Shown: positions 15,251 to 62,713 of the stretch, in pieces
Layout of the letters: the number at the start of each line of letters is the position of its first letter
How positions within the stretch are numbered: the stretch's first letter is position 1
DNA from: Eledone cirrhosa
Taxonomy: Eukaryota
Length of the DNA stretch: 64,000 bases
Assembly: GCA_964016885.1 (NCBI GenBank)
Contig: OZ024746.1
Coordinates: 90,272,001-90,336,000 of the forward strand
Reading direction: 5' to 3'
Notes under the pieces: generated by a model
Told to the model about the DNA's origin: nothing
Database searches by the model: none
Seen by the model: the letters and a program-made list of their open reading frames with translations, nothing else
Translations under genes and position numbers: made by a program

Positions 15251-15384
15251 ACGTCGAAGAGAGATCCCAGCTGGTCTGAGTGTGCTCTACCCACAATAAC
15301 TGGCAATGAAAAAACTGCATCAACTCTGGGAAACTAAACCAGAACAACCTGCCATCCTCTACACACCATCATATACTGCAATCA

Positions 15385-18075
15385 GGGTACAAATTGTTAT
15401 CCTTAAATGCTGGAGGTTTATGCAACAAGATATATGTGTTTAACTCCTACGTCAGAAGTATCGACCCTGACTTCATCACAGTCACGGAAACATGGGCACA
15501 TTCCTTACTCTGTGATGCGGTGTTCAGCAATACTGGGTACAACCTTTTCCGCAAGGACCGCAGTAATCGCCGTGGTTGTGGTGTGATGGTCTACGTTCGT
15601 TCAGACTTTTCGGTAATTCCTTGCGTTGATTTGAACGAATCAGAAGAAGTTTTATTTTTGTGACATGCGTATGACCATGTCAACACTTCTGCTTGGTGTT
15701 GTTTATCGCCCCCAGACTACCATCAGGACACACTACTTTTCGATATCCTCAGAGCTGCTGTCAGGAAAACAGCCACTTATGTGTTTATTGCAGGTGACAT
15801 CAATCATCCTGAGATCATTTGCGAAACCTTTCGTTGGCCACAAAGTGCAAACGATTTCCTTGAGCTAGTGCTGGACTCAAACTGGTCACAAGTAGTCACC
15901 TCTCCAACAAGAGGTGACAGCACTTTGAACCTGATCTTCACCACTACTCCTGAAGTGGTTATCAGTTGTACTACTGAGGAACCTCTAGGCGACTCTGATC
16001 ATGCTATCAATCTGGCTCTTGCGGGCAGCAACAACAACCAGAACCATCTCCAATCTGCTTGCTTTGATTGGAAGAAAGCAGTTTGGAACTTGCACTGCAC
16101 TGAGCTACAGTGCCCAAACTGGCATGAGTTCTATAACTCTGGAGATGTGAACACTATATTCCAGAGCATCCTGGACTCAATATGGATAGCGCGTGCAGCA
16201 TCAGTGCCACGTAAGCAGAAAAAAACACACCCCAAAGTGCAATTTGGGAAGTTCAGCTTTCCGACTTGTCAGGAAAGAACGTCGGAACGCTGAACGGGAA
16301 TATAAACTGCATAAATCGGATGCCAACAGAAAAAAAAGCGGAATAAATCTTCCAACCATCTCAAGCAAGTGACAAAAGAGGCAGTGCTTGAATTAAAACA
16401 GTGCATAGCAACCAATCTTGACAGTAAGACGTTCTGGAAATATATTCATTCAAAGCAGAGACCTCACTCTCCAGTTGGTCCTCTTCGCAATCCCTACACA
16501 AGCCAGATCACTGACGATCCCAAAGAATGCGCAGAACTCATTGCTGAGTGCTATGCAAGCATTGCTACTGTTGAAAACCAGAATGTACCATCTCCACCAT
16601 CTCTAACATCAAATTCCATAACAACTTTCGAATTTAAAGCTGCAAAGTTGAATAAGTGTAACTATGCCTCCCCTGGTCTTGATGGTGTTACATACCTGCT
16701 TCTCAAACGTGGCGAGTACTTCCTTTTGCACCAGCTTTCTTTCTTCTTTCAATACTGTCTCAACACTGGTGCTACTCTGGAGCAGTGGAAAACTACCAGT
16801 CAACTATCGTCCCGTCAGTCTTATTAGCTGCTTTGCCAAACTGATGGAATCCTGTGTCAGAGAAACACTTTGTAGCTTCTGGAGCTCTCACAGCCTCATC
16901 CGGCCCTCGCAGTTTGGATTTATCCCTAACTCCAGCTGCTGTGATCAGCTTATCGAGTTCCTTGAAGACATTACCTGGATCACTGACAGCGGCTCATGGG
17001 TGGATCTTATTTACCTTGAGTTCGCTAAGGCTTTTAATTCTGTGCCACACAACAGACTTATGGCGAAACTCTCTGCAATGGGTGTGACGGATGATCTTTT
17101 TAAATGGTTGAAATCCTTAATTCTCAGCGGAAAAGAGGTAGTCACGGTTCTAGGACAGCATTCTTCACCATATGAGATGTCATCTGGTGTACCACAGGGA
17201 TCTGTTCTTGGTCCCTCTTTTGATTGTGGCATATATTAATGACATAGATGCCAACTAAAATAATTCCAGGGTACGAAATATGCAGATGAGATCAAGGTGT
17301 ACCTTGAAATCAAAAGGACTATCCTGAAATCTACAACTCTTTCCTACAATCAGACCTCGACACAATGCAGCGATAGATCACAGACTGGCAACTGAAGCTG
17401 GCTGTGGACAAGTGTACCACCATGTATTTTGGGAGGAACAATCCAGCCTCCAGATACTCCCTCCACAACACTGATATCAAGAAGTCCTCTTGTGAACGTG
17501 ACCTGGGCATTACTGTCAGCAGCGATTTGCGTTGGACAAAGCATGTCTCTAAGTTTGTCAAGAAGGCCGAGGCTCTCTTGGCAACACTCAGCAATATCTT
17601 TGTTAGCCGCTCTCCACCCATCTATTTAAAGTATATGCAGCTATGTTACGACCACACTTGGAATTCGCATCATCTGTCTGGAACCTCTATCTTGTTCGGA
17701 AGATTGACCTACTGGAAACTGTTTAGAGACGTGCAACAAAGCGCATACCCTCCATCAGACACCTACCATACTCTGAACGCCTTGCTTCCCTGGGCATGTA
17801 TTCATTGAAGCTCCGACTTGGTAAACACACACACAATTATTAACCATCTCGCCAACAACAACGCTGAGCACCTTTTTGATCTCCATGTGTTTAGCACACG
17901 TGGACATCCCTACAACATCAGAAAACAGCACAGCTCCCATGACTTTCGCAAACATCTTTTCACGCTTAGAGTTGCTGAAGCATGAAACAAACTGCCTGCG
18001 TCAGTTGTTAGCTGCCGAGACACTGCATCCTTTAAAACCCTCATACTTCACAAAATTCGCCAAAACTACACCTGA
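15385..18075 (+). pseudogene. CR1-clade LINE ORF2 (APE endonuclease + reverse transcriptase), frameshifted
   Basis: APE motifs LNAGGL, VTETW, RKDR..RGCGV, AGDINHP, LGDSDH. RT motifs SPGLDG, NYRPVSLIS, QFGF, YLEFAKAFNSVPH, SGVPQGSVLGP, YADE, DKC, ERDLG, and C-terminal YSERL..LG and RGH. Several frameshifts and stops. Confidence 0.92.
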
Positions 18076-20948: not shown

Positions 20949-23568
20949 TTCGCTTTATAATGGTTTCTTTATGTCATACAGATCACTCTATCACCAAAAA
21001 ATGATACGGAATCAATCATAGAAAGCAAATATAAAATTTTAAGCGAGACACTCAGAGGCTTTTTACTTGAGTCGTTAGCAACGTAGTTAAAATGATTATG
21101 TCACTTCACACAGAAGGTAAGTTGATTGCAATGATAGGCAATAAAAAGGGAACTTTTTCTGATGTATCCGAACAAACAAGAAAAAAGTCGGATTTCCTCG
21201 TAAATTCTAACCTAAGCCAGTATTTATGATCGTTCTGTCAATATGTACAGCAACGTATGTTAATATGCAACAGTATCCTTTATGAGTTGGATGAAAGCGT
21301 ATGAAATGGACTAGGCGTGCTCAATGAGCCTTGGGTGTATTGACTGAAATATGTTTTCAAATATGTATTAATTGCCTTACTTAAAGTATATTTTAAAAAA
21401 ATAATAATTTAGATATTTGTAGGAGAATGATACTGGACACTTAATGTTAATAATTATGTTTTAAAACTAATTACAAATGCAGAAGCTTTATATTGATTGA
21501 CTGTATACATCACTGGCTAAAATATCCTGGAATAATTTTTTAAACAGCAGCTGGTCTTCATTGAGTATCAATCGAGTTTGATGAAACGTACACACATTTT
21601 TGGCGACCTGATACTTGTTTCCGGATATTTCGAGAACCTTTGAATTTATCCCCACGTTGGAATATTATTCATGGAATATTCTCAATAAGGCTTACATTTA
21701 TCATAGATGCATCTCCAAGAAACTACATATTTTGCAGCGCCAACTGTATTCTCTAAACATGGTGCACCTACTTGAGAAATCTGAAACCTACACACTGAGC
21801 TTATCGGCTTCCAAGAAATAACTTGCTGCCTCTATAACTAATAATTAATTTGGAATCATTTAAAACCGTTGTGTGCTGCGGCAGACGGTAGCAGATGGTA
21901 GAAACTTTCAACTATTCATATTACAACGTGATCTGAATCAATGAATATGAAAGAGCAGAAATTAAACACAATTTCGATTTATCCATAGTTAGAAAACGTC
22001 GACAATTTCTTGGCAATAGGCATCCAAACGAAAAAGATTATATATGCTCCCTCGTGTAAAATGTTAAGTGATGTTATTGTGAGTCAAAACGTTGACAGAA
22101 ATAAATAAGTATATACATTATAATATTAATTAAGCGTGCATCTGGTTCTTTTGTATACCCATATCTTTTGATATCGCGACATTTGTATACGTGTCTGAAA
22201 ATATAGATTTTCAGAACTTTCGATGCGAGCAGTGGCACATATGACGTGGGAGACTACTCCTCGTGTTTAAGATATATTTCCAACTGTAATGCAACATTTA
22301 CCAACCTTCTTAAACAACTGGATATTTTTCTGATAATATCCATTTAAGTCACATTTTATTCGAATTAGTAGATAGACGACTAAATATGCAATTCATTATA
22401 TAAGGGTTTAAGAACAACTGCATAGCTGGACCCTAAATAAATCAACAACACTAAAACAAAGAAAAATAACGTTTAGAACTGTAAACATACTATATTTGGT
22501 TGCTGTTACAGAAAAAGACAAACCTAGTTATCGCAATTTTTCTGGAGCTAGGAATTCCCTAATGAGTAATTCATTGTTATAAAATGGCAGAATGATCTCT
22601 CTGATGGCTATATAAACAGAAGGAAGTTGGAAGGAAGGAACTAGCTCTATTAAAAACTGGAGTGGGATAAGCTCCATCAGATTTAAATGACTATTGTGTG
22701 ACTTTACGCATGTCTGTGTCTTTGTGGTGGGCAGCTACATACTCAGCATCTCCATCAAGCAATTACAAGTTGAAATACAATAATTTTCTAGAGATAATGA
22801 AGATCGATTACAGACTAAATAGTAGAGAATTTGAGACAGTTCGCTTCAGAAACTTAGTCATGCATAATTGAATCGGATGGAGTTAAATGTCTCATGAAAA
22901 TACCATATTCCCTAAATTATTCGTCAGTCTTTGTCGTCTTCTCAATAATAAAAATTAATTTTAATCTTAGACCAATATTCGATTTTGAGAGGAAGTTATT
23001 TCGGAAGCACGGGGCAAATTTTAAGGAGGAGAATCTGACACTATCGATCATTGTCCTCCATTTTATGCCGCTAAAATTCGAAACAAAACATAAACTTAAA
23101 GCCACATGACTTTTGATTTTTAACATATACAATTATTTATTCATTGCTTAAAACACATTTTTCGTTAATCCCTGTAAAACATGCTTTCTGTCGTCTCCAT
23201 TCTGAAAAGATATCTATAAAATGCTCTTACTTTGTCAGTTTACGAAAGAAATATTTTTTATACGATATGTCACGGGTAATATGACTATCATTTAACATTA
23301 ACTCAAATTTGTACATGAATTATTTAATGTGTTTGTAATAGCTGTAAACATTATCAACTCAAATATAAAAATAATTATAAACTCTTTGCACCCTCCCATC
23401 ACCCATATTTTAAAGTTTATGTTTGACTATCCAGATATCATATTTCCATAAAAAACGCCTGCATAGATTTACAAATTACCAACACACATGAGTAACTCAC
23501 TTTCTATTTTCGTACTAATATTATATATTTCTTCAAATGAAACCATAACTAACCATATTACTAAAATT

Positions 23569-23698
23569 AATTGTTTCTACTTTTGGCACAGGGTCAGCAT
23601 ATAGCCAGTGTATTACTGGTACTTTATTTGATCGACCCCGTAAGGATGAAAGGCAAAGTTAACCTTGGCTGGATTTGAATTCAGCATGGCAAGGGCCG
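23569..23698 (-). mobile_element. SINE family A, 5'-truncated
   Basis: Tail, body and B-box present; it abuts a fragment of the fold-back family at 23701-23743. Confidence 0.85.
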
Positions 23699-23740
23699 CG
23701 TCGAAACGGCTTGAGCACTGCAGTCTGGGTCATACATTTT

Positions 23741-23803
<63 letters not shown>

Positions 23804-23811
<8 letters not shown>

Positions 23812-24335
23812 TATTGAGTTAGAAACTGAAAATAGTAAGAGAGTATTTTGAGTTCCTAACTCAATATCTGATATTGCCGGCTCTGTCTCATTGAGCTAAT
23901 TTAAAAGTCGTGTAAACCCGGCTAATAGTTTTAGCAGAATATGTTCATGAGACACCCGAGGCTTTGAAGACATGTGCGTTAATTCATATTAGCACACTAT
24001 TCAGTCTTCTGATATACTTAGAAGTGGAACGATTACTAATTCTTACACCTACTGAAGAGCAGAAAGTTGGTGATTCCTTCGGTTAATAATTTGCGAAACA
24101 CCTCCTATGTTTGATGGAGATGGTGAGTATGTATCTGCCCAACCACAAAGACACACACATGCTGTCTAGGTGTTTCAGGCAGTTGCCCAATATAGGTCTG
24201 TTCTTCATTTGATTTACTACTTTAAATTAAGTCTGACAAGCAATATTGTTATAGTTAGTAATGTTTTCCTCATAGTGAACTTGTTCCTTTATAATTCGAA
24301 CGCATGTACGTTTATATTTGTGTTTATCTCTCTAT
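23804..24335 (+). mobile_element. ORF-less hammerhead-bearing element between (TA)n tracts (diverged copy of the 61853-62680 family)
   Basis: Shares blocks with 62240-62680 (tattttgagtt..aactcaatat, gagctaa, atgagacac, gacatgtgcgtt, ttaataatttgcgaaac, aatatagg, tactttaaat, gaactt..tc). Has a terminal inverted repeat at 23804-23874. Confidence 0.75.
24045..24173 (+). ncRNA. type I hammerhead ribozyme (long loop III)
   Basis: Helix I acaccta(24045-51)/taggtgt(24167-73); core CUGAAGA 24052-58; helix II gca...tgc; GAAA 24095-98; helix III ACA/UGU; GUC site 24164-66. Confidence 0.7.
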
Positions 24336-24337
24336 GT

Positions 24338-24482
<145 letters not shown>

Positions 24483-25303
24483 TATTGTAGATATATTACA
24501 TACACAATGTTATTAGCTTCATGCTTGTTGAAAATGAGAATGAATGAATGCATAGATGCGTGTGCGTGTGTATGTGTGTATGCATGTCCGTGTTGCCCCT
24601 TGCTCCAAGGTATGCTAGTTTTACTTTCATTCCACTGAAATACAATCAATGATTTATTTTGTTAAATCATATATTAGCTTTCATATCCAGAACAGATGGC
24701 ACCAACCTCGTACTATATATATAATACCCCTTTCGTCCTGCATCAATTTGAAGGTTCCAAACTAGAGTAATACAATGCGGAGTAATATGAATTAGTTGAT
24801 AGAACGTTCTCCTATACATTATAAGTATTGATTGGGCTTTAAACGTCGTAGGGAGTTATTGTCTAAATTCTAATCCCCTCCGGGACCCTTGCCGAATGAT
24901 GACATATCCAAAGGAAAAAAATATATATTTGACATTCTTAGCGAGTAAATAAATTACTGCTTTTGAATATAATCTTAGTTAATTAAGAAATCAATTATTG
25001 AAGTTATTCCTAATTTAAAAGAAAGGGGGTTTGGGGACAATTTATACTACTGCAAGATTAATAAAATAACTACCAGCAGGCTAATCAACAAGCGAATTTA
25101 CGAATTGTTTAACAGTCACGTTGAAATAGAATACACTGTATATTTATGAAAGCATATTTTGTAGTATGCAGTGTCAATTGCTTTGTAGTCTAAAAAGGTA
25201 ACGTAGGTGTCCGGTAGACCGTATATAGGGCGACCGGATACTTTCCGTGCGTCTCATCATGTTTTTCAGTGCATTGATTCCTTTTTACATATTATGTCAT
25301 TAC

Positions 25304-25436: not shown

Positions 25437-27297
25437 TTTCCACCATTCCTATTTGGAGGCTACAGCAGCTGCAGCATTGAGACTTACAGGTATCATTTAG
25501 AAAGACGGATAATATCATGTGAATGATAAAGCATCATTTAGTTTCTGTTCTGCTTAAAACATATTTAGACATTATCATCGTCAAAGTAATTTTGACGTGC
25601 AGTATTTTTCTTTTCCGTAAATAGAAAATACTTTAAAATTTCTCATTCAATCTCAATACATTTACGGCATGTTTAAATGAGAATTGCATGACGAATGCTT
25701 TTACTTTACTAATCTGTATATTTGGGCACATTCCATCAGCTACAATAAATTGAATCAAAGTTGATACAATATTAAATGGGAAGGTGTAAACAAGAGTGAG
25801 AATAGGGTGAAAATCACAAATTCATATAAAAGTTATTGTTCGTCCAGAATGATAAAAGTTATGTCAAAGAATGATATTTTCCTGGTGTGATTTTGCTATA
25901 GGTATTTTCTTTCCTATTCGTATATATTGTAAATTTGTTTACAATATCAATTGAATCACGACAAGGGATATTGATTGAATATCTTTTACTACATAAGTGT
26001 GAAACTGTCATCAATTCTTTTCAATTCATGGATCAAAATCTATTATCTGAAGGCAAAACTGAAATAGAATCCGCTTTGTATGATCATGGTTTGAATAATA
26101 GAAAAGAGTCTGCGGATATAAAAAACATTGAACATTGAAAAAATATTCTCATTTATTTTCTCCTGCATCATTGCTATATAACCATAGAAGGAAACGATTC
26201 GAATACAAAGGAAAATCAGTGTATTTTCAAGTAGCTGTCAATTGTTTCTAATATCATATAGAAATGACATGTTATAAAAAAAATTCTTATGTGAAAAATG
26301 GAATTGAATAGATATGGAATTGTTTGTATAATAATACATCATTATCGATAAGCGAAAGTAGTGATGGGAGGGGGGTTACAATATGTCTGTGTCAACATAT
26401 GTAAAGAAACGATGCATTAGATCATTTCACTGTCTGTAAGTAATTCAGAACGGTATAGTGCCTGAAATAATCTTACGGAAGTTAAGCTTCGTTCTAACGA
26501 AAATACAATTATATCATGCTTATGCGAGATTGGTATGTGCAAAAGCCACTTATGGCATGCACATAATTAAGTAACACTAATAGAAGTTCACGATTCATTT
26601 ACATTTGAGAACATAACATGTGCCGTTTATTGAATAAGTATACGATAATATTTCAGGAAAAGTCCCTATGTTAAGTCAGCAATATACACCATGTCCTGTA
26701 TGAAGGCTGAAATTTAAAGCCAGATCATTCATGGTGGAGACTGTGAAGACTAATATTGTAGTGGCTATAATCATACTGCTATTTCACGAAATATAATTAA
26801 TTCAATAATTAACAATTAACGAAGTTTCCATATGCATATCCCACATGGTAGGCTTGAAATTGATTTCATATATTTGAAGATGGGGCACATTATCTAAGTT
26901 TATATTTAAGCTTATTGCAACATCTGTCTTGTACTTCATACGTAGTGTTATAGTGATAGTTAGATCATTAAAATCATTATTATATTATGTAATGATTTAT
27001 TTGTCTCATATTTATAGGTGAAAATTATAAACGATAAGCTATTTGATATTAGAAAAAGGATAGCAGATTTTGATGTGAATCAATATATAATACTTAAGTG
27101 TATAGATATACCAATCATAAAGTGTATGAATCAAACGTCTATTTAAGTTTAACATATTCGTGATAATCATTCTGAAAAATACTTCTTCTATTTCATGTTT
27201 GTGAGTCATCAAATTGAATATACTTGCAATAATATCTAACAACTCGTGTCTATTGGCTTACGCTAATACAGATGATGACATCGTAGCATGATAGTAT

Positions 27298-27340
<43 letters not shown>

Positions 27341-27477
27341 CATATGCATTTTCTATATATCGAAGTGTGGTTGAGTAATATATAATCACATTCATCAAGT
27401 ATGTTTCATGAAGTAGGATATATATATATATATATATAGTGAAAGAATGAAGAATAACATGGTCAACCACACAAAGT

Positions 27478-27596
27478 GTTATTATAATAGACTCAATGTG
27501 GTTCAGTTTGAATAATGGAATTGTTGGATCGAAGCATTTTGGTTTGAAATTACCGAATTCAGTAGCTGCTTTATGCCTACAGAAAATTGACCGTTC
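27478..27596 (-). repeat. inverted copy of the Penelope-like element 3' end (inverted pseudo-LTR)
   Basis: Approximate reverse complement of ~30027-30143 (ctgtaggcataaagcagc...aatttcaaacca...ccattattcaaactgaac...gagtctatta). Confidence 0.85.
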
Positions 27597-27672
27597 AAGT
27601 GTTTATGAGTTTTTAGAGAACTTATTATTTTCCCTAGTAAATTCCTCATTTTTATTATTATTATGTACTAAC

Positions 27673-30089
27673 ATGGAAAGACACCATATAAGTATATCCT
27701 TAAAAAACATACCTATACCTACAGATAGGGATCATACACTCGTTATGATACAGCGTACAAATGACTTTATCCGTTAAATCCGATGGAAAGCATACCGTTA
27801 CGATAAAGGACATACTAATAATAAATATGAGGAATTTATTAGTGAAAAATACGGGTTCAAATCCTGCAAACATCCACCGAACAACCACCAAGTTGATGCC
27901 TTCGAAGTTGACCTCATGAACATGATAAACGGAACCAATTTAAAAAAACGGACACATTACAACAAACTGCAAAACCACATCAATGCAATACTAAAAAAAA
28001 ACTGCGTAACACCGACGGTGAAAGCGGACAAAAAGCACCAATAGTGAAAGCGGACAAAATATCAAACGTATACACCATGAGCCTTAATACATACAATAAC
28101 TTTATACGCCGTGAATTAGATAAAAACTACAAGAAAACTATGGAATATACACTCACTAATATTAATAAGGAAGGACTTAACATAGTAAACAGACTGAAAA
28201 TATCTAATAGAACCGAGCCTCTAACCCCTTGTAAACCCACATTTAATCTGAAAGATCATAAATACAAATTCGAAACTGACCCCACTATTAGATTAATATG
28301 CCCATGAAAATCGGATATAGGTAGAATTAGCAATATATACTAGATGGAATAATAGCACACATTATAGACAAACTAATAATTAAGCTTTGGGGTAACACTA
28401 ACGAAGCAATAGATTGGTTTAACAAAATAGACAATAAGAAAACATGTGACTTCATACAGTTTGACATCAATGATTACTACTCCTCCATTTCCCCAGTCAC
28501 CCTAAATAAGGCACTAACCTTTGCACAGAAAAACTCGGACCTATCCTCTGGTGAAATTAGAATAATACTAGTTGCTAGGAGAACTATCATTAGGTTCGAT
28601 AATAGTTACTGGGAAAGAAAAAAAACAGACAGAATAGCTTTGATATCACTATGGGATCTAACGACTCCGCTAAAATAACAGGCATAGTTAGAATATATAT
28701 AGCACATATCTTACATAAGGAAATTGATAACCACCAAGGAGGAATTTATAGAGACGATACACTCCTTTTAGCTAAAAATTTAAATAATCAAAACTTGGAA
28801 AGATTACGTAACACGATTAGAATATTCTTCAATAAACTAAGCCTAGATACCACTTTCGGACTTAATACTAAAAAAGCTATCTTCCTAGATGTATCACTCA
28901 ATCTAAACACAGGACTAATATAGACTTCCAAAAAAATAACGAAAATTTAGCCTACATTAGTTATAACTCAAACCACCATCGCCCCATAATTAACTCCATA
29001 GCACATAGTGTACCCCTTAGAATTTCATGCTTATCGTCTAATCTAGATATGTTTAAAGTACACAAAAACTACTACAACATAGCTTTGCTTAAGGCAGGCC
29101 ACAAGGATAGACTCAAATACATACCATATTCAAACAAAATCAACACACCTATCAACAATAACACCACCCACACCTATAGAAATAGCAAATATAGGACTCA
29201 ACATAGAAATAGACAACGAGCGCCAGAAATAAATGAACCGAATACTAATATAAGGACCCCTAGGAAATATAAAAAAAACCCAGAGATATGAAATACTTAT
29301 GGTTCAACACTATATTTAAATCCTCTATAAAAACCTTCTACATTATTTAAACTAATTGCCAAGCACTTCCCTAAACTTCACAAATACCATAAAATCTTTA
29401 ATAGAAATGCTATCAAACTCTCTTACTCTACTGCAGCCAACATAGAATCACACATACATGAAATAAGCTTTAGAACAATCTCTAATGAAAATAACCTACA
29501 AACAAACACCATAACACCAAATACAAAACACAAACACATAACAACATCGCAACCACACACACGTCAGTACGCATCACAACAAAACATCAACAAACACAAA
29601 TCTCAGTTCATACATAACAACATACAAAACCGCGTCGAAGAACCCGCACACAGGAAGGCCTAAAAATGTAACTGTCACTTATCGGATAGGTGCCCAATAA
29701 AAATAGATGCCTGGAGTCAAATATTGTGTATTGTGCACTATAAATCGAGGCAACTTAGCATGGCACTACATAGGTTCTACAGCTGGGGAGTTCAAAAGAA
29801 GAAGGTACGTCCACAGATATTCTATAAATAACCGTAGACTAATGCACACAACAACGCTCGCCAATAAAATCTGGCAGCTTAAAGATACAAACCAAGAATA
29901 CGGGATTAGTTGGTCGAAACTATCGGGGACAAAGGTCTTCAGAAATGGAATTCCCACTGCGAACTTTGCAATATGGAGTTGCTTCAAATGTTAAAGTACG
30001 ACAAAATGCTGCTTAACAGCAAAATAGAACGGTTAGGTTTCTGTAGGCATAAAGCAGCGACTAAATTCGTTAATTTCAAACCAACATGA
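27673..30089 (+). pseudogene. Penelope-like retroelement ORF: RT + C-terminal GIY-YIG endonuclease (Naiad-like), degenerate
   Basis: N-terminal ISLKNIPIP...IRWKA; VKADK; LKDHK..F...PTIRLICP*KSDIGRIS; FIQFDINDYYSSI; FDITMGSNDSA; GIYRDD; FLDVSLNLNTG; linker CNC..CP; VYC...YIGST..EFK.R...H; CELC..E...LN..E..CRH; stop at 30087-30089. Several stops and frameshifts. Confidence 0.9.
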
Positions 30090-61816: not shown

Positions 61817-61852
61817 GAATGTATACATACACACAAATATATATGTATATCA

Positions 61853-62679
61853 CATATTGAGTTATAAACTCAAAATAGTCTTTTACAATTAAATAGCTCA
61901 AAGAAGGGAATGTTTCCGAGCCGTGCAATACGAATGAATAAATGAGAGGGATGAACACCTATACAAGTATAGATGGGTTCGAATTGTAAATGACCAAGTT
62001 CGGTAGGTTGAAAAATACTAATTTAAAATAATATAGTTTGCCTGTCTCGATTTAAAGTAATAAATCAATAAATATAAGAAATCTAAAGTTAGCTCTACGT
62101 AAGGAGCCGAGAATATCGAACACATGTTTACAATTCAAACACATGTTTACTTGTATCTGTGTTCATCCCTCTCATATATTCATTTGCATTACACGCCTCG
62201 GTAACATTCCCTTCTTTGAGCTTTTAATTGTAAAAGACTATTTTGAGTTTAAAAACTCAATATATGATATTCTCGGCTCCATACGTAGAGCTAACTTTAG
62301 TCCCACAAAACTGGCTGCTATTTTTTGCCGCATGAGTATGAGACACGTTAGGCGCTGTGACATGTGCGTTCAACAACACATAGTTCTCAGACTTCTAAAG
62401 TCTTTTGAAGTGAAAGGTCGAATTTCTTGGATACCCGCAGAAGAGCACATGGATACTGACTTTCACTTAATAATTTTGCGAAACAGCTTTAGAATCTGTC
62501 CGGGTATCAGGGCCATTGCCAAATATAGGTTTGTTATTTTAATGATTTATTACTTTAAATCGAGACAGGCGAACCATATTATTTGAAATTAATATTTTTC
62601 AACCTAACGAACTTGGTCATATACAATTTGAACACATGCACACTTGCATCGGTGTAGGTCCCTCTCATATATTCATTTG

Positions 62680-62680
<1 letters not shown>
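61853..62680. mobile_element. ORF-less ~493-nt tandem-unit element with hammerhead, plus an inverted partial copy, between TA-rich tracts
   Basis: Plus-strand 62129-62680 is 1.1 units (tacaatt.aacacatg...ccctctcatatattcatttg repeats at 62129 and 62622). 61853-62117 is an inverted, internally deleted copy. Confidence 0.8.
62430..62508 (+). ncRNA. type I hammerhead ribozyme (core U4 substituted by A)
   Basis: Helix I gatacccg/cgggtatc (8 bp, perfect); core cagaaga 62438-44; helix II gca/tgc; GAAA 62480-83; helix III ACAG/CUGU; GUC cleavage triplet ending at 62500. Confidence 0.75.

Positions 62681-62713
<33 letters not shown>

Follow-up and report, generated by a model that had tools for sequence, protein, structure and literature searches.

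A hammerhead-bearing, non-coding repeat of Eledone cirrhosa with Penelope-type insertions, a ribozyme selected in source elements as judged from its sequence, and a predicted folding switch

The window analyzed here is a stretch of 64,000 nucleotides of the Eledone cirrhosa genome (GCA_964016885.1, contig OZ024746.1, positions 90,272,001 to 90,336,000 of the forward strand), and all coordinates below are positions within it. The locus holds a decayed member of a non-coding repeat family with a unit length of about 500 nt; it lies between the left and right halves of a (TA)n target (23743-23807 and 24333-24496, neither assigned to a strand). The copy has two arms. An inverted, 5'-truncated arm on the minus strand (23804-23836) corresponds to unit positions 49-81 and terminates at the tail end of the element, and a forward arm on the plus strand (23831-24341), which belongs to subfamily A, covers unit positions 38-500 and is 90.4% identical to the majority sequence of its 11 closest copies. 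The inverted arm and the first part of the forward arm form a fold-back at 23804-23874 (z -10.3; 0 of 200 shuffles as stable). The original prediction had noticed this fold-back at the (TA)n tract and taken it for the beginning of the element; the structure is real but is the inverted 5'-truncated arm of the insertion, not a feature of the element. Weak Rfam matches of the fold-back to miRNAs were dismissed as noise.

The hammerhead lies on the plus strand of the forward arm. It is preceded by a 22-nt arm (24023-24044), for which loop II or a downstream segment is the predicted partner. The 5' strand of helix I (24045-24051) leads into the core bases C3-A9 (CUGAAGA, in DNA CTGAAGA; 24052-24058), and these are followed by a helix II of 3 bp with the G10.1-C11.1 pair and a 30-nt loop II complementary to the upstream arm (24059-24094). 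The GAAA core and the 5' strand of helix III occupy 24095-24101 (GAAACA at 24095-24100). After a private insertion in loop III (24108-24162), the stretch 24163-24173 contains the 3' strand of helix III, GUC (24164-24166) and the 3' strand of helix I (24167-24173), with the predicted cut after 24166. The downstream partner of the arm (24251-24271) begins about 85 nt past the cut. The core CTGAAGA, GUC and the perfectly paired helix I are thus found where they had been predicted. At 24101, a change of G to C breaks one helix III pair. When folded alone, neither 24040-24180 nor 62425-62515 was better than shuffles (z -0.06 and -0.52, respectively), and no hammerhead fold is predicted for the 23804-24341 copy (helix probabilities of 0), so that 24040-24180 is a poor construct for a cleavage assay.

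Other repeats lie nearby. An abundant SINE-like repeat, which we take to be a SINE, is located immediately left of the (TA)n target (23567-23740) and occurs at 7-9 other places (families D19 and D20). A decayed LINE with endonuclease- and RT-like open frames occupies 15310-17805. Judging by their motifs, RT- and endonuclease-like stretches at 27261-29660 are presumably pieces of a broken Penelope-like element (PLE); the one piece tested had no Pfam match.

The window contains a second, diverged copy, of subfamily B. It consists of an inverted arm (unit 338-576, ending at the tail end) with a short second inverted piece (unit 77-111) on the minus strand (61847-62117) and a forward partial tandem (unit 433-495, then 1-495) on the plus strand (62127-62682). 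The homology of the 23804-24341 copy to 62226-62665 spans about 500 nt (61% identity with gaps, E 1e-29), and the two loci therefore align far beyond the ribozyme, as the original prediction demanded of them. Helix I has changed on both strands, as claimed: 3 of its 7 pairs differ on both sides between the copies and none is broken. The core is intact in the 23804-24341 copy, as described, but reads CAGAAGA in its partner (62438-62444). The fixed U4A core of subfamily B and the pairing of loop II, both described below, had been missed.

The long loop III of the locus copy has a local source. Positions 24108-24162 are identical at 50 of 55 nt (91%) to the reverse complement of 22708-22761, a unique donor (minus strand) 1.35 kb upstream, the sequence of which matches only two places in the genome, the donor and the insert. 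The insertion lies 4-6 nt before the cut site, its junctions show 1-2 nt of microhomology, and the distance from GAAA to the cut exceeds that in the partner copy by 51 nt net. Templated repair or a template switch is its most likely origin. Extra DNA is thus present in loop III, which had been given as about 55 nt longer, but it is not a family trait. The insertion spares three helix III pairs and the core, as would be expected if it defined a hammerhead subfamily; such a subfamily is nevertheless extremely improbable, because 1 of 90 copies carries the insertion (the other 29 A copies lack it) and its source is a unique sequence nearby. In itself, the long loop III is just a dated example of local templated insertion. 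Small private duplications were observed in loop III of several copies (L002, L008 and L060), suggesting that loop III may be a fragile hairpin. The long loop III and the fold-back are by-products; the interest of the family lies in its pattern of constraint, the U4A subfamily and the predicted switch.

The E. cirrhosa genome (3.0 Gb) was searched with the A copy, the B copy and a C type first met in a flank, and 30 loci were taken for each; only the best 40 candidates were scored per search, and the samples are therefore biased to long, well-kept copies. At least two subfamilies had been claimed, and three were found, with units of 510 (A), 495 (B) and 517 nt (C). The majority sequences are 81% (A-B), 87% (A-C) and 75% (B-C) identical, and mean identity of copies is 90% within A, 93% within B and 71% between them. 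In a tree with a midpoint root, B and C are clades and A is paraphyletic to C. Exact subfamily 24-mers occur 24 (A), 21 (B) and 159 (C) times genome-wide and are present in 9, 7 and 15, respectively, of the 30 sampled copies; when scaled, these exact-pattern counts give lower bounds of about 80 (A), 90 (B) and 320 (C) core-bearing copies. The candidate numbers of a first look (2026-2936) were rejected as copy numbers.

The unit has a GC content of 0.34-0.36, 63-66% of it is paired, and the circular fold of the whole unit is more stable than shuffles in the three subfamilies (z -7.1, -5.1 and -4.9; 25 shuffles each). It is organized head to tail, with its own start directly after the unit end. 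Among five extra loci fetched, one contains 2.4 units head to tail with three hammerhead cores, and these units share 32 departures from the C majority vs. 11 that are unshared. Further, 18 of the 90 sampled main arms are longer than one unit plus tail, whereas the majority are shorter. Two C cores 2.7 kb apart proved to be a local duplication without an ORF, and a Pol III box reading of the unit, weak by eye, was dropped.

The insertions are Penelope-type. Of the 90 main arms, 87 stop either where the unit stops or after another 81-87 nt of a following unit (the tail), and the 5' ends are ragged. Most sampled copies (81/90) adjoin (TA)n, and 62 of 90 have an inverted 5' arm, the length of which is very different between copies (33 nt in the 23804 copy, 239 nt in the partner B copy). 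In two-armed insertions with both ends classifiable, the tail is on one arm only in 47 of 49 (A, 15/15; B, 15/17; C, 17/17); this asymmetry was tested for A and B only (Fisher p 3e-6), because the C query itself contained the tail. The marks described for Penelope-like insertions are an inverted 5' arm, a tail, partial tandems, 5' truncation and microsatellite targets (PMC8557442; PMC11167929), and the inverted 5' arm, one-sided tail and microsatellite target found here are all those of a Penelope-mobilised non-autonomous element. The two fixed 3' ends fit the two RT start sites with nicking of both strands that are described for an anole PLE (PMC11167929). Small hairpins at unit positions 56-72 and about 127-145 are conserved in A, B and C, and the one that lies just inside the tail end is a possible RT start signal.

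The copies share 5' truncation, partial tandems, the inverted 5' arm, a tail at one end, microsatellite targets and two RT start sites with EN+ PLEs as these are described in PMC8557442 and PMC11167929, but differ from them in lacking an ORF, in a tail of 81-87 nt vs. 30-40 nt and in showing no sequence relationship to either PLE family checked. A tblastn search with the RT-EN protein of a PLE gave no match inside any copy and matches only in flanks, and the repeat therefore lacks the RT plus GIY-YIG ORF of an autonomous PLE. It might be argued that the units are only the terminal repeats (pLTRs) of an autonomous PLE, seen as 5'-truncated copies; the insertion anatomy is the same as that of PLEs (PMC8557442), and with the best 40 candidates scored per search a rare full-length element could be missed. 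We consider this quite improbable, since 30 of 90 main arms are preceded by their own unit 3' end, one locus has 2.4 units head to tail, the PLE protein matches inside no copy and the 5' flanks share no coding sequence by eye.

The preferred reading is that of a non-coding repeat which depends on the enzyme of another element. Very probably, a borrowed RT/GIY-YIG enzyme would prime on both strands of a (TA)n break; the unit end would be the start of one cDNA and the tail end that of the second, and these truncated products would be joined head to head. We examined PLEs of this genome as partners. A young 4.2-kb PLE (33 loci; identical 775-aa ORFs and a small hammerhead of its own) shares no sequence with the unit and was rejected. 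An older PLE (15 loci) beside one C copy was likewise rejected, as it is without unit sequence and is co-inserted in the same (TA)n only. The 3' region of this old PLE family (about 75% copy identity; L126-L140) shares short motifs with the reverse strand of the unit 3' end, at E 0.01-0.04, which is not significant. The young 4.2-kb PLE, presumably Neptune-type by its motifs and a candidate for an active element, has a 476-aa open frame in addition to the 775-aa RT/GIY-YIG frame and a tail of about 140 nt, and dozens of equal-scoring intact-length copies of it were observed (L093-L095, G000:C4:322580001-322590000 and others), in tandem and inverted pairs.

Across the family, CUGANGA, GAAA and NUH occur in type I order; the majority sequences of A and C are canonical, and B is a core variant. 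The Rfam hammerhead model gave no gathering-score match in the window and none at E up to 10 on 23800-24340, for which the long loop II and the insertion may be responsible. The heptamer CTGANGA occurs 22 times in the window vs. 20.5 expected, that is, at chance level. Because Rfam finds nothing and the heptamer alone is at chance level, the support for the ribozyme rests on the family. The motif resembles the minimal hammerheads of PLEs as described in PMC4209133 in its type I order, its G10.1-C11.1 pair and its occurrence in PLE-type repeats. Several motifs of the minimal kind flank the fetched loci; in contrast to these, the motif of the unit has a stable helix III of 5-7 bp and a non-palindromic loop, so the hammerhead would work here as a monomer and not as a dimer. 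The literature on Penelope hammerheads of octopus yielded PMC8557442 as the only relevant paper.

We examined 15 helix pairs, one of them misregistered by trimming, in an alignment of 90 rows (88 distinct). Pairing was found in 88.7% of the cells, and both-side changes numbered 116 vs. 41 in shuffled alignments and 7-12 in slid controls; two of five covariation measures (pairs with double change and pair types) did not exceed shuffles. Helices I and III show double-sided changes, and the 3-bp helix II one-sided changes only. RNAalifold gave no structure on the gappy 90-row alignment. Changes were then mapped by parsimony on a tree built from 324 well-filled columns minus the hammerhead. Five double changes each fell on a single internal branch, and every one of them is compensatory; 5000 random sets of 15 column pairs gave a mean of 0.17 and never more than 3. 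The B stem accounts for three of the five, and the others occurred in an A clade of 12 copies and a B clade of 17 copies. Two further helix pairs changed stepwise. The compensatory change that had been claimed from two copies is thus found across the family. A distal extension of helix II (columns 54-58 with 65-69; 76% paired in C) failed in C and was given up for the arm pairing.

The 11 core columns have no internal and 24 terminal changes, compared with 159 internal and 594 terminal changes in outside columns (Fisher p 0.008; chance of 11 all-zero columns 0.0015). U4 and N7 are not among these 11 columns, U4 having been dropped after its variation was seen; when U4 is included, there are 2 internal changes in 12 columns. 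Terminal rates per column are similar in the core (2.18) and outside it (2.40), and inserted copies thus decay neutrally. Core positions that are unchanged on ancestral branches and decay at the background rate in copies indicate, at the level of sequence, that the ribozyme was selected in source elements, as the original prediction supposed for active masters. Hammerheads may merely parasitise Penelope-type elements (PMC8557442), and hammerhead mutants of the anole PLE did not affect insertion in vitro (PMC11167929). The frozen core of source lineages, together with free decay in inserted copies, argues for a needed function and, if true, would provide in vivo evidence for a role of cleavage in Penelope-type propagation. 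The three natural subfamilies are ready-made compensatory variants.

U4 is a normally conserved base of the hammerhead core. In subfamily B, A4 was found in 30 of 30 copies, giving the core CAGAAGA, and the B 24-mer has 21 matches genome-wide with A and none with U. Two internal branches carry a change of this base: on the stem of B it became A, and in a small clade of A copies it became C. One compensatory change inside subfamily B postdates U4A. CCGA (U4C) was observed in 4 of 30 A copies (L006, L019, L021 and L024), two of which form a clade. U4C is a tolerated natural hammerhead variant, and a viroid carrying it stays infectious (PMC3088659); U4A is not among the variants seen in the text of that paper, whose figures and supplements may list it, and none of the papers listed for hammerhead and U4A concerns a core variant by title or abstract. 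We infer that the U4A ribozyme rather likely still cuts, but more slowly. As an alternative, the fold may have been kept for RT binding or priming, with cleavage dispensable and subfamily B catalytically dead. This would agree with the fixation of A at a normally conserved base, with copies that run through the cut site and with the insertion of the anole PLE without need for cleavage (PMC11167929). We find it unlikely, because no internal branch, including those of B, shows a change at the remaining 11 core positions, all unpaired and catalytic, a compensatory helix III change spread within B, and the U4C viroid variant remains infectious (PMC3088659). As the U4A core is fixed, motif searches requiring CUGANGA miss whole amplified families.

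The consensus fold of the whole unit (-104 vs. -42 +/- 6) forms helices I-III and has 9 pairs changed on both sides (shuffled mean 4.2, maximum 7 in 20), and conservation is higher in its paired columns (76% vs. 42%). The 22-nt arm has two complementary segments in the unit. Its duplex with loop II has energies of -20.4 (A), -18.8 (B) and -19.1 kcal/mol (C), which none of 2000 shuffles reached in any subfamily, and the complementarity covers about 20 of the 30 loop nucleotides. Its duplex with the downstream segment, which starts 84-88 nt past the cut, has energies of -15.9, -11.1 and -14.9 kcal/mol (0, 34 and 1 of 2000 shuffles, respectively), the B partner being weak. When arms were combined with loop II of another subfamily, five of the six combinations were weaker (-9 to -13.5) than the arm with its own loop; the exception is the A arm, which pairs equally well with the C loop II (-20.0). 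Next to the junction, all three subfamilies retain a helix of about 6 bp whose letters differ between them, including a U-A to C-G change between A and C, and 10 of 30 C copies have an A-C mismatch in the arm:loop II helix.

When growing prefixes of the majority sequences were folded, helix I stayed at a probability of 0.26 or less in every subfamily as long as no more than +90 nt were included, and reached 0.9-1.0 once the prefix extended to +120 nt or beyond. In A and B the two other helices then form as well; in C they do not, and its full-length majority fold contains helix I, with helices II and III at probabilities of 0.02 and 0.11. These folds are equilibrium calculations in which pseudoknots cannot form. 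They predict a co-transcriptional switch, in which the 22-nt arm would pair with loop II and block the ribozyme, or with the segment about 85-110 nt past the cut and release it. In nascent RNA, an arm:loop II hairpin of 13-18 bp would enclose the core in its loop and keep the ribozyme off; later, the downstream partner would displace loop II and extend helix I, and the ribozyme would cut. The same arm pairing would bring together the ends of the cut monomer for ligation, so that cut monomers could close into circles. For this joint proposal of off state, release and circle closure, we judge the chances to be about even.

Alternatively, the arm:loop II pairing might not be an off state but an activating pseudoknot, formed by loop II and the extension of helix I. 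It adjoins helices I and II where stems I and II touch, the junction-proximal helix of about 6 bp persists through changes of letters, and about 40% of hammerheads are reported to use such pseudoknots, of 6 bp in the tested case (PMC3088659). We regard this as rather unlikely, since complementarity over about 20 of 30 loop nucleotides would leave a linker too short to span it and helix I is extended when the arm pairs with its other conserved partner; the final fold could nevertheless accommodate a short pseudoknot. The unit resembles the pseudoknotted and core-variant hammerheads of PMC3088659, as far as that source describes them, in a predicted Watson-Crick contact between the stem I and II regions and in tolerated core variants, of which U4C is named, but differs in a pairing of about 20 bp with a competing partner.

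Returning to the switch, the life cycle would begin with transcription of a tandem source locus; the arm:loop II hairpin would hold the core shut until the downstream partner frees it. Sampled copies freely cross the cut site; copy starts spread on both of its sides, and no barrier to reverse transcription was seen there. That copies run through the site suggests that the template was uncut or re-ligated RNA, and such RNA, or circular RNA, would be copied into (TA)n from both sides of the break. The predicted switch, if true, would make available uncut templates as well as cut monomers that can circularise. Overall, we consider it likely that this non-coding repeat is copied by the Penelope-like RT of another element, with its type I hammerhead selected in the sources and, as predicted, inactive until transcription has run about 100 nt beyond the cut. 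More tentatively, it may be a delay-switch retrozyme, in which loop II is antisense to the arm, only near-complete units would be cut and circularised, and the design would tolerate a U4A core that went on amplifying under selection.

The repeat has the features of a retrozyme that can be read from DNA, namely no RT, tandem hammerhead units and a self-paired unit of low GC, and circular RNA is a candidate form of it. Like the non-LTR retrozymes described in PMC7229834 and 10.64898/2026.07.22.740005, its units are non-coding, arranged head to tail and carry a single type I hammerhead; it has low GC (34-36% here), strong self-pairing and dispersed monomers, and mobilisation by PLEs has been proposed for them. 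Unlike these as described there, its unit is 495-517 nt (vs. 170-400 in PMC7229834 and 51-972 in 10.64898/2026.07.22.740005), its copies are mostly two-armed partial tandems rather than arrays, its 30-nt loop II is complementary to an arm, and it has a U4A subfamily. Among the papers listed on the subject, none described a folding switch of a retrozyme. At least five other types of hammerhead-bearing repeat, with a short palindromic helix III, were observed near the repeat, in (TA)n neighbourhoods that they share with it (flanks of L019, L026, L027, L030, L035, L036, L042, L043, L048, L050 and L057).
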